Shown piece after piece: positions 2,424-7,235 of a DNA stretch of 64,000 bases. The stretch is from an uncultured virus (IMG/VR IMGVR_UViG_3300032086_001957). Its lineage: Duplodnaviria; Heunggongvirae; Uroviricota; Caudoviricetes. The stretch lies in IMG/VR virus record IMGVR_UViG_3300032086_001957. One strand, written 5' to 3'. Below the pieces are notes generated by a model. It searched no databases and was not told the origin of the DNA. It saw only the letters and a list, made by a program, of their open reading frames with translations. Position numbers and translations under genes: made by a program. The stretch's first letter is position 1, and each line of letters opens with the position of its first letter.

Positions 2424-2659
2424 TTGAAATAAACTCCCACAAAACTTTTAGCTTTTAAAACTCCGTCATCAAGAAAAGACTCTGTTGCACTTGGATTGTC
2501 TACAAAATAATCACTATTAATATAACCAAACAAATCTTTTTCTTCATTTGTTAATGGTTCTGTAAAAACATAACATTGGTCTATCAGTTGCTGTTTAACA
2601 ACAGGGTCTGTTTCTACTGATATTTGACCTAGTAATGTTGCATAGTCTGGTTTAGCCAT
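2420..2659 (-). CDS. Hypothetical protein, possibly virion-associated
   Basis: 79 aa ORF overlapping both neighbours (TAATG and ATGA junctions). Confidence 0.65.
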   Translation of the reverse strand: MAKPDYATLLGQISVETDPVVKQQLIDQCYVFTEPLTNEEKDLFGYINSDYFVDNPSATESFLDDGVLKAKSFVGVYFK

Positions 2660-4128
2660 TATTTTATTTTTATCCTTTGTAACTCGTAATTAAATTTTTC
2701 ATCTGCGTAAATATTTATGCGTTCCAAAAAATGACCTAATGTATAATTTCTTTTACTTTTATATCTTAAATCATCAGCAATATCATAAAGTACAGCTTGT
2801 TCTTTTTGTTCACTCTTTCTTAAACCACGACCAATAGATTGTAATGTTCTGATTCTACTCTTTGATGGTGATGCAAAAACTATGTTATGTAAATTACGAA
2901 TATTAATACCAGTAGAAAATGTTCCATATGAAGCGATTATGATTGCATCTTTTTCTTCTTCAGTAATTTCTCTAATCTGTTCTCTTGTCTGTGTATCAGT
3001 TCCACCATAAACAAAAAATATTTTTCTCTTTGTATCACTCTTAATTAAATCATAAAGTTGTTTACCATGTTTTTCTACAAACTGAAATAATATTAAAGTA
3101 TTTCTATGTAAAACAAATGCAAGATTTTTTATGAATTCATTTCGTTTTGTATTCGTAACAATAAAATCTATTTCATCTTGGTACTTCATATCTTTTACAA
3201 GTTTACAAACTTCTTCAGGATATGATAAAACTAAACATCTTATTTTAAAATCAGATAATGTTTTCTTATCAATTAATTCTTTTGTAGAAACTACTTTGTT
3301 TAGAGAACCAAATAATCCTTCTAATACTAATCTATGTGTTTGTGTACCATCAATAGTTCCAGTTAAACCAAAACGATATTTACATAAATGCAACTTTGTC
3401 ATTATTGATGTTAAAGATTTTGCTTTGAATAAATGAGCTTCATCACCAAATACACAACCAAATTGTTCAAAGTATTTTTTAGGCATTTTATAGATTGATT
3501 GCCAAGTTGATATTACAATATCTTTTTCTACTTTCTTATCATGTCCTTGATAAATCTTTTGCATATGATATTCTAACCAACCATAGTCTAAAAAGTCAGA
3601 ATACATTTGTTCTACTAGAGATGTTGTTGGAACAAGTATTAGTATCTTTTTGTTTTCATCTCTTAATAATAAATTATAATATCTTACTAACGAATAGATG
3701 ATTAACGATTTACCACTAGCAGTAGGACTAAGCAATAATGCACGATTGTTTCTGATACCATAGTCAATGGCGTCAATCTGATAATCTCTAACTGTAATAC
3801 TTTTTCCTTGAGATTTGATTTTAAGACTTTTAATAAATTTTGATAAGTTTTCTTTAGATAAATCATTGTTAACTTGTAGACTGTCATCAAGTTCATATTC
3901 TTCCCCATATTCTTTTGCCCATTTTAATAAGTAAGATAAAAGTCCAACATAAAGTTCTCCTGTTGTTACAGAAAACAATCGTATCTTACCATCCCAAATT
4001 CTATTTCTATATGCTGGCATAAAACGAGCGCCAGGTACTTCAAATGTAAAATAATCTGAAAGTGCCATTGCAGTTGATCTCTCACAATCAACTCTCATGT
4101 ATACTTCATTTATTTTTTCTATTTTCAT
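2659..4128 (-). CDS. uvsW: UvsW RNA-DNA/DNA helicase (start probably MKIEK at 4128)
   Basis: SPTASGKS Walker A, DEAH box, LQSIGRGLR; ATGA overlap with upstream gene. Confidence 0.96.
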   Translation of the reverse strand: MKIEKINEVYMRVDCERSTAMALSDYFTFEVPGARFMPAYRNRIWDGKIRLFSVTTGELYVGLLSYLLKWAKEYGEEYELDDSLQVNNDLSKENLSKFIKSLKIKSQGKSITVRDYQIDAIDYGIRNNRALLLSPTASGKSLIIYSLVRYYNLLLRDENKKILILVPTTSLVEQMYSDFLDYGWLEYHMQKIYQGHDKKVEKDIVISTWQSIYKMPKKYFEQFGCVFGDEAHLFKAKSLTSIMTKLHLCKYRFGLTGTIDGTQTHRLVLEGLFGSLNKVVSTKELIDKKTLSDFKIRCLVLSYPEEVCKLVKDMKYQDEIDFIVTNTKRNEFIKNLAFVLHRNTLILFQFVEKHGKQLYDLIKSDTKRKIFFVYGGTDTQTREQIREITEEEKDAIIIASYGTFSTGINIRNLHNIVFASPSKSRIRTLQSIGRGLRKSEQKEQAVLYDIADDLRYKSKRNYTLGHFLERINIYADEKFNYELQRIKIK

Positions 4129-4700
4129 ACAAACTGTGGGCCACGAATCCAACCAACTAAACTTTTTCTAACACCTTTTGTTATTGGTCTTACTCTGTGC
4201 CACAAATTAGACCTGAAACAAACCATTTCATTTTTTTCTAAAACAATAGTTTCAAATCTTTTACCTTTTATATTAGGGCCGTGTATTTCTATATCAAGTT
4301 CACCACCCTCATATTCATTTGGGTCATTTAGTCCAATAGAAAAACTTAATTTTCTTACATCAAGTGTAGGTAAGTGATTAGAATCTGTATGCCAATTATA
4401 ATATTGACCAACATCATAAACTGTGTATTGTAAATCTTCTAACTTTGTTAAATTGTATTTCCAGTTACCTTGTAAATTTAAATACTTTATAGTAGAAAAT
4501 AAATTTTGCATTAACACAGCATCATTGATAAATTTTATTTTTGAATCTCTACTTTTTAAATTTATTTCAGTTTGTTCAGTTGTTGCATTACCACCTTTAC
4601 CAATTTCTGCACTTTGAAATTCTGTATGTGTTCCATAAATGTTTTGCAACATCATTTCATCTAATTGATAAATCAAATAATGTGATATAAGTTTACTCAT
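4125..4700 (-). CDS. 2OG-Fe(II) oxygenase, prolyl-hydroxylase-like (start probably MSKLI at 4700)
   Basis: YNWHTD, RKLSFSI.LNDP.EYEGGEL, WHRVRPITKGVRKSLVGW. Confidence 0.88.
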   Translation of the reverse strand: MSKLISHYLIYQLDEMMLQNIYGTHTEFQSAEIGKGGNATTEQTEINLKSRDSKIKFINDAVLMQNLFSTIKYLNLQGNWKYNLTKLEDLQYTVYDVGQYYNWHTDSNHLPTLDVRKLSFSIGLNDPNEYEGGELDIEIHGPNIKGKRFETIVLEKNEMVCFRSNLWHRVRPITKGVRKSLVGWIRGPQFV

Positions 4701-5136
4701 CCATACCCTCCATAAATCTTCTCCAATTAATAATATTTTTAATTTCAAAACTTCTACTATTAATTGTTTTCAAAACTTCTTCACAATAATCTTTACAAGT
4801 TTCAAAGTATTCTTTTTTCTGTAATAGAGTATTTAATTCTTCATCGGCTTCTAGATAGATTGGAATATCACCACGAAGAATTTTGTGGTCGAATGGTTTA
4901 TCTCTATATACTTCAGGACTTGCTTTACCAGCGTAGTATTCCCATTTTTCTTTTTTCAAAGTTAAATAATCAAAATGATGTTTTCTTTCTTGTAATCTAT
5001 ATTTTGAGAATAGTCTTAAGTATTTTATTTTAAGTGCATGAGTACGAACGGTTTCTTTATCACATTCGATATCATCTATTGTTATGTCTTTTTCTGATTG
5101 TATTTTCAATTCTTCGAGGGTCATAGTGAGTTCCAT
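4693..5136 (-). CDS. uvsY: UvsY recombination mediator
   Basis: KWEYYAGKA, YLEADEEL, INSRSFEIKNII.WRRF; synteny gp3-uvsY-uvsW. Confidence 0.9.
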   Translation of the reverse strand: MELTMTLEELKIQSEKDITIDDIECDKETVRTHALKIKYLRLFSKYRLQERKHHFDYLTLKKEKWEYYAGKASPEVYRDKPFDHKILRGDIPIYLEADEELNTLLQKKEYFETCKDYCEEVLKTINSRSFEIKNIINWRRFMEGMDE

Positions 5137-5140
5137 AATT

Positions 5141-5246
5141 TAAAAAGAGAGTGAGCAGTTTGGTTTGCAACTTGCAGTTTCTATATTATCTATTGAAAGA
5201 CTGAAAGGTTGTCAAATGTTCAAGCCAACCTTAAACTGCTCATAAT
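5141..5246 (-). ncRNA. Candidate structured RNA (unassigned) between gp3 and uvsY
   Basis: 10-bp closing stem TGAGCAGTTT/AAACTGCTCA, internal 7-bp hairpin, starts just after a late promoter, ends in a pyrimidine/U run. Confidence 0.55.
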
Positions 5247-5254
5247 TATTTATA
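5247..5254 (-). promoter_or_regulatory. T4 late promoter TATAAATA
   Basis: Exact consensus overlapping the gp3 stop codon. Confidence 0.8.
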
Positions 5255-5843
5255 AAGTTTCAAATTCATAGATTGAATATTTGAAAGTTACTGTAGCTGT
5301 TAATGGTGTAGTTGTTGTAGATTGAACATCATACTCAACACCAGTAAGTGCAGATGGATATAAACTTTTAAAATTAACTCTGACTGTTGGATTATTTTTA
5401 TTTGTCAAAATAGTTAATGTCGCATCACTTTCCAATGCAGATATATTTGCAACTCTTGAACTTGTGTTTGTTCTACTAACATCACCACCTGCGTTTGGTT
5501 TTAATCCAGCTTCACCAGATGCAATTGCGTTTGCAAATTGTGTTGTACTTTGTGGAAAACCTATACCAATAATCCAATCATGTACTTCAATATAATTTGC
5601 AAAATTTTCTTGTACAATAAAAGTAAGATTCAAATCTTCATAATTTACAACTTCACCCATTGCAGGTATTCTTTTAAATCTTGTTGTATATTCTGCATTA
5701 CCATCAAACGATAAGCCTGGTATGTTTGCTCGTATAACATTATACTGAACATTAGGTAATTTCATTATATCAAATCTAAACTGTGTATTATTTGCATAGT
5801 CTATATTTGATGGTTGTCTTGCAAGTGGGTTAAAATCTACCAT
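5250..5843 (-). CDS. gp3: Tail completion / tube terminator gp3
   Basis: FRFDIMKLPNVQY..RANIPG, YEDLNLTFIVQENF.NY.EVHDWI, SDATLTILTNKNNP; follows gp23. Confidence 0.88.
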   Translation of the reverse strand: MVDFNPLARQPSNIDYANNTQFRFDIMKLPNVQYNVIRANIPGLSFDGNAEYTTRFKRIPAMGEVVNYEDLNLTFIVQENFANYIEVHDWIIGIGFPQSTTQFANAIASGEAGLKPNAGGDVSRTNTSSRVANISALESDATLTILTNKNNPTVRVNFKSLYPSALTGVEYDVQSTTTTPLTATVTFKYSIYEFETL

Positions 5844-5864
5844 AGTATTTTCCTTATATGATAC

Positions 5865-5872
5865 TATTTATA
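5865..5872 (-). promoter_or_regulatory. T4 late promoter for gp3
   Basis: TATAAATA about 20 nt before ATG. Confidence 0.8.
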
Positions 5873-5875
5873 CAC

Positions 5876-5910
5876 AAAAAAAAAAGACCCACTTTTTAGG
5901 GTGGGTCTTT
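5876..5910 (-). terminator. Rho-independent terminator after gp23
   Basis: AAAGACCCAC/GTGGGTCTTT stem followed by a long U tract on the minus strand. Confidence 0.9.
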
Positions 5911-5948
5911 AGTGCGAGGTATATTATTTTATTATTATAAAATTACTA

Positions 5949-7235
5949 TTATACTAAATTAGTAACCTTTACTCTACGATAGTAGACATTAGCATTTGCA
6001 GTCATTGTTCCGTCTGTAATTGCTGTGCTACCTCTAGAGAATGGATTCATTGCAAGACCGTATCTTGTTTTGAAACCAATTTTTGGTTGGAAAGTGTTTT
6101 CACCAACTGCACGAACCATTTGCAATGGAACATATGGGCAGTAGTAAAGACCTGCATCATAAGGTGAAGAACCCTTATATCCAACAACGAAGAACTGGTC
6201 AGCAGAACCGTTAGCAGAATATGGGTCAATATACACTTTGTACTTACCATTGATTGTACCAGCAAAAGTATTACCAGTATCGTCAACATTTAAGTTAGTG
6301 TTTAATGCAGGAGCATAGTCAAGAACACCAGCCATTGAAAGTGCAGAAGCAACATCTGAAGAACAGATAACTATGTTACCTTTTCCTCTACGAGTTTCTT
6401 GTGCAACAACATTTGCATCTCTTTCAACTTGGAATAATAGTCCTTTGAATTTCTCAACAGACCATCTACCATTTGAATCTGCATCTAAATCGAATGTACC
6501 TTGTGTAGTTGTATCTACAGCAGCACCTTCTTTTGCAGTAATGTAAATGTTTCTAACAACTTCTCTATTGATTTCAGCAAGAATCTCACTAGAAAGAATG
6601 TTAGCAAGTTCTGTTTCTGCGTCTAAACCGTGAATTGCTTTTAAGTCTTGAGCAAGTTCCATTGTGTACTCAGCTTTTAAAGCTCTTGATCTTGCAGTAA
6701 CAGTTTGCTTGTCAATTGAGAACGCCATTTGTGCAAAAGCGTTTGTTGCAGAATCACCTTTTGCTTCAGCAGCCGATGTTTGCATTGCAACACCAGTTAC
6801 ATAAGAACCAGCAGGGTCATCATTAAGAACAGAAGGGTTAGTACCTTGCATTTGAGCAGCACCACCAGAAAAGTCGTTATCTGCTTCGTTGTAGAAAGCT
6901 TCAGTACCACTTTGTGATGAATACTTAGCTCTCATTGCAAAGATAAGACCTGTTGGGCCTGTCATAGGTTGTACACCACAAACATCATATGCAATTAAGT
7001 TAGGCATTGATCTTCTAACTAAAGAAATTAGGATTGGATCCCAATTTCCTACACCAGCAGTTGAGTTTGTAGGTGCAGCCTCTGAAAGAAATGCGGCATC
7101 TTCTTTGAGGGCTTTTTCTTGGTTTTCTAGGATAACTGTGGTTACAGCTTTTCTATAAGAGTCTTTGATTTCAGGTAAATCTTTATGCTCTAATACTGGC
7201 TGCCACTTTTCCTGTAAATGTTCAGTTTGAAACAT
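5949..7235 (-). CDS. gp23: Major capsid protein gp23
   Basis: LVRRSMPNLIAYDVCGVQPMTGPTGLIFAMR, ELAQDLKAIHGLDAE, FQPKIGFKTRYG. Confidence 0.99.
   Translation of the reverse strand: MFQTEHLQEKWQPVLEHKDLPEIKDSYRKAVTTVILENQEKALKEDAAFLSEAAPTNSTAGVGNWDPILISLVRRSMPNLIAYDVCGVQPMTGPTGLIFAMRAKYSSQSGTEAFYNEADNDFSGGAAQMQGTNPSVLNDDPAGSYVTGVAMQTSAAEAKGDSATNAFAQMAFSIDKQTVTARSRALKAEYTMELAQDLKAIHGLDAETELANILSSEILAEINREVVRNIYITAKEGAAVDTTTQGTFDLDADSNGRWSVEKFKGLLFQVERDANVVAQETRRGKGNIVICSSDVASALSMAGVLDYAPALNTNLNVDDTGNTFAGTINGKYKVYIDPYSANGSADQFFVVGYKGSSPYDAGLYYCPYVPLQMVRAVGENTFQPKIGFKTRYGLAMNPFSRGSTAITDGTMTANANVYYRRVKVTNLV

Follow-up and report, generated by a model that had tools for sequence, protein, structure and literature searches.

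A conserved RNA structure that probably opens the late uvsY transcript of Melnitz-like marine T4-type myophages

Bacteriophage T4 provides systems with which the element reported here can be compared. In T4, the gene 32 and gene 43 proteins each use a folded element upstream of the RBS to repress translation of their own gene; in the gene 32 operator the folded element is followed by an A+U-rich, unstructured tract (PMC3014915). In its passages on the subject, the same 2010 review names only gp32 and gp43 as T4 self-repressors of this type, and it notes that functional characterisation of a riboswitch or of a trans-acting small RNA was still lacking for T4 (PMC3014915).

Here we describe, in Melnitz-like marine T4-type myophages, an element of ~90 nt that is probably an undescribed, gene-specific structured RNA with which the late uvsY(-2OG oxygenase)-uvsW transcript begins. 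Like the T4 gene 32 operator, as the review describes it, it appears to be a folded 5' leader domain of a T4-type recombination/replication gene that is followed by an A/U-rich RBS stretch (PMC3014915), and it is likewise gene-specific and single-copy. It differs from that operator in having no sequence or model relationship to it, in belonging to uvsY, and in that protein binding is only proposed here. Moreover, the compact H-type pseudoknot of gene 32 contrasts with the three to four helices of the present element, which is larger and more intricate than both the gene 32 and the gene 43 operators of T4. With the riboswitch aptamers used by relatives, such as the glutamine riboswitch reported in Melnitz and Mosig (PMC9004378), the element shares a conserved junction, invariant nucleotides, a variable peripheral hairpin and long-range pairing, as well as occurrence in phages of streamlined marine hosts. 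Unlike these aptamers, it comes without an Rfam riboswitch match, an evident platform or a ligand suggested by gene context.

The ompA-type stem-loops that stabilise the 5' ends of some bacterial and phage mRNAs are simple hairpins and have neither conserved loops nor long-range pairs. The present element resembles them in a helix that would bury the first transcribed nucleotides, given the start proposed below, but differs from them in its conserved loops and long-range pairs. T4 oriF, or ori(uvsY), as outlined in PMC3016281, resembles this locus in its location at uvsY (by oriF's name), in its promoter with a downstream A/T-rich region and in its functional link to uvsW. However, the T4 origin combines a middle-mode promoter with an unwinding element that tolerates replacement (PMC3016281), whereas the locus described here carries a late-type TATAAATA box and a strongly conserved, covarying RNA structure.

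The gp3-uvsY gap and its late-promoter box

The window (the whole 64-kb stretch of DNA that was analysed) comes from a marine T4-type myophage. Its capsid protein shares 79.5% identity with the Melnitz (Methylophilales phage) protein and ~71% with those of the Pelagibacter phages HTVC008M and Mosig. At the position of the gp3-like gene, HTVC008M has a gene annotated as tail completion protein, and Mosig has one annotated as putative tail tube protein. Every gene around the element (capsid, gp3-like, UvsY, oxygenase and UvsW-type helicase) is carried on the minus strand, in the following arrangement:

5949-7235, minus strand: major capsid protein
5250..5843, minus strand: gp3-like tail tube/tail completion gene, the upstream neighbour (phrog_45 'tail tube', E = 1.7e-28)
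5247..5254, minus strand: TATAAATA box of late-promoter type, overlapping the stop codon of the gp3-like gene
5151..5243, minus strand: structured RNA element (covariance model R1, 73.2 bits, E = 3.1e-16)
4693..5124 (probable; ORF start listed at 5136), minus strand: uvsY, a UvsY-like recombination mediator (phrog_231, E = 1.3e-40)
4125-4748 and 2659-4152, minus strand: ORFs of the 2OG-Fe(II) oxygenase and the UvsW-type helicase

The true uvsY start is probably the ATG at 5124 rather than the one at 5136, because UvsY homologues begin MTL(D/E)EL. The 5136 ATG falls in the SD region, and the GGA of the 5136 codon region would serve as SD. The oxygenase and UvsW ORFs, as listed, overlap their upstream neighbours, an arrangement compatible with translational coupling; in Melnitz, the oxygenase is absent between uvsY and a helicase-sized gene.

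The initial annotation of this locus had drawn attention to a gap of ~110 nt between gp3 and uvsY, to a late-promoter box at 5254-5247 on the minus strand and to a perfect 10-bp helix between 5242-5233 and 5161-5152. All three are present. The gap measures 113 nt (between the listed ORF ends, 5250 and 5136), and a terminator scan of 4600-6100 found nothing within it, its sole terminator-like site being at 5910-5883, after the capsid gene. That site (5883-5910, minus strand) is a strong terminator-like hairpin with a U-run, and it is what the weak Rfam matches STnc370 (E = 0.088) and csRNA (E = 2) correspond to; a TATAAATA box follows it at 5865-5872 (minus strand), 21 nt before the gp3-like gene. 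A small ORF within the gap was considered and judged to be non-coding, because the frames differ in length and start codon among lineages.

The T4 late promoter is described as a TATA box of 8 bp that precedes the start by about one helical turn (PMC2988020), and if this spacing is applied to the box at the end of the gp3-like gene, late transcription would begin ~6 nt after the box, at about 5241, on the first bases of the outer helix P1. With such a start, the 5' end of the RNA would be buried in that helix. The box-to-P1 distance is 4-5 nt in every homologue. The window contains 15 copies of TATAAATA against 10.45 +/- 3.16 expected, so that the total count is unremarkable, while the strand bias is marked by 14 of the 15 lying on the minus (gene) strand; 12 of these 14 are intergenic or at a gene 3' end. 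Nine of these 12 stand 19-36 nt before the next ORF and two stand 55-61 nt before it; the strand bias and the mostly short distances are what a set of late promoters serving the structural genes would show. No late leader of the window is longer than that of uvsY, whose box is 110 nt away from the listed ORF. No copy of the element follows any of the other 11 intergenic minus-strand boxes of the 64-kb window.

Model R1 matches the window once, at the uvsY leader only, 4-5 nt after TATAAATA and ~27 nt before the likely uvsY start. The parts of the element, from its 5' to its 3' end, are:

5233..5242, minus strand: 5' strand of P1, pairing with 5152-5161 (perfect 10 bp)
5227..5230, minus strand: 5' strand (GGUU) of the long-range helix H_G, pairing with AACC at 5162-5165
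5221..5225, minus strand: 5' strand (GCUUG, consensus ACUUK) of the long-range helix H_L
5188..5201, minus strand: P3 hairpin, GUCU-UUCAAU-AGAU, with stems at 5198-5201 and 5188-5191
5170..5174, minus strand: 3' strand of H_L (CAAGU, consensus MAAGU, within the conserved GNAAGUU)
5162..5165, minus strand: 3' strand of H_G (AACC; coordinates from the window sequence)
5152..5161, minus strand: 3' strand of P1, pairing with 5233-5242
5125..5150, minus strand: U/A-rich spacer with an SD-like GGA, from P1 to the start codon, unpaired with the element in every model

A perfect stem of at least 10 bp arose in 38 of 3000 dinucleotide-preserving shuffles of 5137-5249. The window sequence folds with an MFE of -24.1 kcal/mol (z = -2.37), and four of 200 shuffles fold equally well. 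By these shuffle tests the window alone is mildly unusual, and the weight of the case therefore comes from the homologues.

Homologues and covariation of the helices

At least 53 distinct homologues were found, in uncultured marine phage contigs and in the cultured Methylophilales phage Melnitz. Every homologue collected lies between the gp3-like gene and uvsY, as one copy per genome, and orientation and distance to the uvsY start are constant. The search patterns required TATAAATA, AGAKAA or GATAA, and GNAAGUU, and the scripts required a P1 of at least 5-6 bp; the invariance of these motifs, together with part of the P1 percentage given below, was thus imposed by the patterns and filters. Two sources are free of this bias. 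A search with the UvsY protein alone yielded 79 viral contigs, and among the 75 whose upstream DNA was examined the element was present in complete form at 21 loci and in partial form at one (L007); the UvsY of all 22 carrier loci is 45-100% identical to that of the window, and TATAAATA is also present upstream at 21 loci found in this way. The Melnitz copy was located through synteny, without any RNA pattern, between genes 210 and 211 (uvsY) (64.2 bits, E = 8.3e-15), and it is the single copy of the complete Melnitz genome, upstream of uvsY. These unbiased sets (the 21 protein-found loci and Melnitz) have the same architecture as the remainder. Melnitz deviates from the members collected before it at just those positions on which the first patterns were strict, and more divergent members probably exist.

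In one set from the pattern scans, all 20 distinct sequences with all three motifs had a P1 of at least 6 bp. In the one scan that did not require TATAAATA, the box stood directly upstream in 31 of 31 true matches among the 116 matches listed, the other 85 being, by reading, unrelated coding DNA. A metagenome scan added at least three new variants, and a scan of bacterial and archaeal genomes gave no true match among the 120 matches listed, the one that passed the filters being read as chance.

The element was not found across the whole genomes of HTVC008M and Mosig. In HTVC008M (L750, 1177-1659) a DNA endonuclease V gene lies between the tail completion gene and uvsY, and a 100-nt gap with a TATAAAT box, without a match to the model, precedes uvsY. 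At L020 and at loci still further away in sequence, there is either no gap, or the place of the element is taken by a hairpin with a sigma-70-like TTTAC/TTGAC-N17-TATAAT promoter; in L024-L054, which are without the element, a short hairpin overlaps such a promoter before uvsY, so that uvsY appears to have an early-type promoter in one clade, while in another it is preceded by a late-type promoter and the structured leader. No match was found in the nearest record (G001, 27 kb), which at its completeness of 19% is uninformative.

Downstream of the element, an SD and a start codon follow within ~20-35 nt in all homologues, and AGGA or UGGA precedes the ATG by ~10 nt; this SD, 8-16 nt past the end of P1, stays unpaired in the folds. 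The U-run behind P1 is not a conserved feature, since L131-, L413- and L764-type lineages lack it. Mean identity is 73.3% in the element vs 66.8% and 71.7% in the flanking coding DNA, and 22 of its columns are invariant; 38 reach a conservation of at least 90%, and many of these columns belong to no helix of the model.

Comparison of the orthologous gaps, which the initial annotation had put forward as one way to check its proposal, revealed conserved structure and covariation (n = 53): P1, P3 and H_L covary, and the element is conserved by matching base changes. In A4, the alignment of 53 distinct sequences fitted to model R1, 92.9% of cells are paired vs 35.2-46.1% with partners slid. Changes on both sides are seen at 11 pairs, and none of 500 shuffles reached the covariation score of 0.207 (0.105 in shuffles). 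P1 is kept in all 53 homologues, with 95.5% of cells paired (partly through the filters) and compensatory double changes at five of eight pairs, and its sequence types include GAGCAG, GAGUAG, GUGCAG, GUGAACAGGG and GUGGACAGGG. P3 (GUCUC...GAGAU) is paired in 93.6% of cells on A4 and 98.1% on A5; its closing pair is GU in 36-40 sequences, UA in seven and AU in four, and its loop ranges from ~3 to 14 nt in length.

The strongest signal comes from H_L (ACUUK with MAAGU), in which every cell (100%) is paired across all 53 homologues. Its innermost pair, columns 25-81, is GC in 29 sequences, AU in 13 and UA in 11, and is unpaired in none of the 53; this correlation was not built in, because the 5' base was free in the scans that found the loci. 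When the state of this pair is placed on a tree made from flanking DNA only, eight changes are needed, and well-supported branches force at least four, three and two changes for the three states. This history is one of repeated double substitutions or of whole-element exchange, and the pair is kept either way. RNAalifold predicts P1 and H_L, on an alignment that was fitted to that fold. Support for H_G, GGU(U/G):(C/A)ACC, which lies outside H_L, is moderate: 80.3% of its cells are paired (n=53), and its pair 19-90 is UA in 24 sequences, CG in three, GC in two, UG in one and other in 16. The antisense strand scores ~22 bits vs ~85 bits for the sense strand and G-U pairs are frequent, from which it follows that the folded strand is the sense strand.

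The types of the element do not track the gp3/uvsY flank tree, which is built on 53 loci and 435 columns only. For example, L446, with an element of the G-C type, adjoins L343 and L413, with A-U types, in that tree. Such a distribution suggests that the leader module may have been exchanged between phages.

Alternative inner folds and known families

Within P1, the long-range helix is not the only way to draw the interior. The GGUUG strand can alternatively pair locally around the ACUUK loop (in the window, GGUU at 5227-5230 with 5205-5211), and GNAAGUU can sit in a local hairpin of its own, such as GUAAC-GCAA-GUUAC or AGAAC-AGCAA-GUUCU. Such local hairpins give a cloverleaf, and the covarying pair 25-81 would then be a loop-loop contact. 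An alignment fitted to the cloverleaf is 85.4% paired overall (local P2 63.9%, P4 77.7%), and in these models the long-range fold is better supported than the cloverleaf. The two are mutually exclusive and near-isoenergetic, ~0.6 kcal/mol apart on average: the mean energy is -25.2 kcal/mol with the long-range helix enforced vs -24.6 with its 5' strand single. The mean MFE is -26.6, and the long-range helix is fully in the MFE structure of 11 of the 53 sequences. Both alternative folds lie within an unchanged P1. The element may nevertheless be bistable, or a cloverleaf in which the covarying pair makes a tertiary contact.

Two mutually exclusive inner folds had also been proposed in the initial annotation, and this idea holds in another form, that of local hairpins against a long-range helix, while the particular folds were not supported by the comparison. 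The first of them, a 7-bp hairpin (AAGGUUG/CAACCUU) that includes the local pairing of GGUU given above, has 54.7% of cells paired column for column vs 33.3-56.7% in slid controls and, as drawn, is specific to the lineage of the window. The second, a bulged rod, can be drawn in the window, with 44.2% of cells paired vs 21.5-50.9% in slid controls. Two further candidates were rejected by eye. A third fold, ACUUGRAC with the conserved GUUUGAGU, is broken in L109, in L171/L167/L189, in the window type and in most Melnitz-type sequences, and a pairing of J3/4 AUAAUAU with the start-codon region occurs in some lineages only and was judged to be A/U-rich chance.

The view that this RNA is neither a tRNA nor a known ribozyme or riboswitch is borne out by the family searches. 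Rfam 15 gave no matches in the whole window at gathering thresholds; with E up to 10, over 4000-6500, the gap was touched only by CRISPR-DR61 (19 bits, E = 8.4) and SNORD79 (E = 7.9), and with E up to 1, nothing was found on the element at ten homologous loci. ARAGORN found no tRNA or tmRNA genes in window positions 4900-5500, and no anticodon loop is kept, since the P3 loop is so variable in length. The layout of the gene 32 type (a folded element, then an A/U-rich RBS tract) is present, though A/U richness is not distinctive in an A/T-rich genome, and a UUAAA-type repeat pattern was not found in all lineages of the spacer. Full-text literature searches found no description of such a motif. 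We file the element as a new RNA family of a known kind, the structured cis-acting mRNA leader.

Function of the leader

The domain would act in cis on the mRNA that follows. We read it as a cis-acting leader rather than a free sRNA because it is single-copy, tied to uvsY and without a terminator, and because a spacer with SD and start follows it. The initial annotation had left the choice between a discrete late phage sRNA of ~95 nt and a leader of the uvsY-oxygenase-uvsW operon. The leader fits best, given a gap without a terminator and the SD and start close behind the element, and the sRNA is very unlikely. Window-type sequences do have a run of five U residues 5 nt after P1, but the combination of a G+C-rich hairpin and a U-run at the 3' end, which would mark the intrinsic terminator of an sRNA, was not found in the gap, the U-run is absent in several lineages, and an SD and a start codon always come next, at a constant distance and orientation. 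Logan metatranscriptome contigs cover the region, with one contig of 534 nt ending at 5233 and a contig from another study ending at 5240; these ends hint weakly at a boundary close to the predicted start and are silent on the 3' end. Two contigs bridge the promoter (X1 record 2, X2 record 6), and two run from the element into uvsY (X1 record 1, X2 record 6), contrary to what a discrete sRNA would predict. Logan contigs are assemblies in which starts, ends and strand are not readable and DNA carry-over is possible, and we do not count them as expression evidence.

As the mechanism of the leader we prefer, tentatively and with modest confidence, a protein-binding translational operator, because the layout recalls that of the T4 gene 32 operator. 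The folded domain would be a nucleation site, placed next to an unstructured A/U-rich stretch with the SD and the AUG, over which an excess of a single-strand-binding recombination protein (UvsY or a gp32 homologue) would spread, and this spreading would repress translation as in the autoregulation of T4 gene 32. UvsY is not known to regulate itself in T4. Since the element leaves the SD free, the platform of a classic riboswitch is missing.

The same architecture invites comparison with riboswitches, and in one such model a small molecule would be bound at the junction of the long-range helix and P3, the two folds would be the ligand-free and ligand-bound states, and late uvsY/uvsW would be tuned in this way. 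The covarying helices expected of a conserved aptamer are indeed there (the paired cells and double-change pairs of A4), as are the invariant columns, many of them outside the helices, the variable P3 loop with a long-range or pseudoknot-like helix, and two exclusive folds of nearly equal energy; moreover, a glutamine riboswitch has been reported for the relatives Melnitz and Mosig, as described in PMC9004378. Yet no expression platform was found, the SD being unpaired and outside the element and the gap having neither a terminator nor a U-run common to all lineages; both folds lie inside an unchanged P1, so that nothing evident is left for a switch to expose; and the recombination genes suggest no obvious metabolite, nor does Rfam give a riboswitch match. 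On balance, we regard this model as unlikely. A broader form, a riboswitch-like sensor in which a small molecule or the state of replication and recombination would select the fold and so gate late synthesis of UvsY and UvsW, seems distinctly improbable. A 5'-terminal stability or processing domain without a trans partner, whose paired 5' end would shield the late uvsY mRNA from 5'-end-dependent decay, is, like the riboswitch, unlikely. P1 begins so close behind TATAAATA in all homologues that, with the T4 late-promoter spacing outlined in PMC2988020, transcription would start at its first bases. In addition, there is no terminator between gp3 and uvsY, and read-through transcripts from the gp3 promoter should therefore also carry the element, where it would mark a processing or barrier site. 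A simple hairpin would suffice for 5' protection, however, and the size of the element (ninety nucleotides), its 22 invariant positions and its covarying long-range pair point to more specific constraints than stability; nor is the element repeated behind the other late-type boxes of the window. Least probable of all is the primer RNA of an origin, a counterpart of T4 oriF/ori(uvsY) in which the folded 5' domain would help a persistent R-loop to form in the downstream A/T-rich stretch, with UvsW removing it later. An A/T-rich spacer does follow the element and uvsW is in the operon, T4 oriF is named for uvsY and has a promoter with a downstream A+T-rich unwinding element, UvsW unwinds R-loops, and a late-mode promoter may matter for T4 oriC, according to the account in PMC3016281. 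This reading is weakened because T4 ori(uvsY), in the same account, relies on a middle promoter together with an unwinding element whose sequence does not matter (PMC3016281). No such pair of features, a middle-mode MotA promoter and a sequence-independent unwinding element, was found at the locus described here, where the box is of the late type and the RNA is constrained, its tight conservation of sequence and structure being the opposite of the T4 element.

Whether the leader is a protein-binding operator, as we prefer, or a sensor, the element merits entry as a new RNA family. Since Melnitz is in culture, on OM43 strain H5P1, the element is directly testable. If UvsY or gp32 binds the element, autogenous translational control would extend to the recombination mediator; if a metabolite binds it, it would be a new riboswitch class, and if the sensor reading is true, no ligand-sensing RNA would have been linked to recombination genes of T4-type phages before it. 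What we see is a well-supported, family-level RNA structure on one recombination gene of abundant marine phages.
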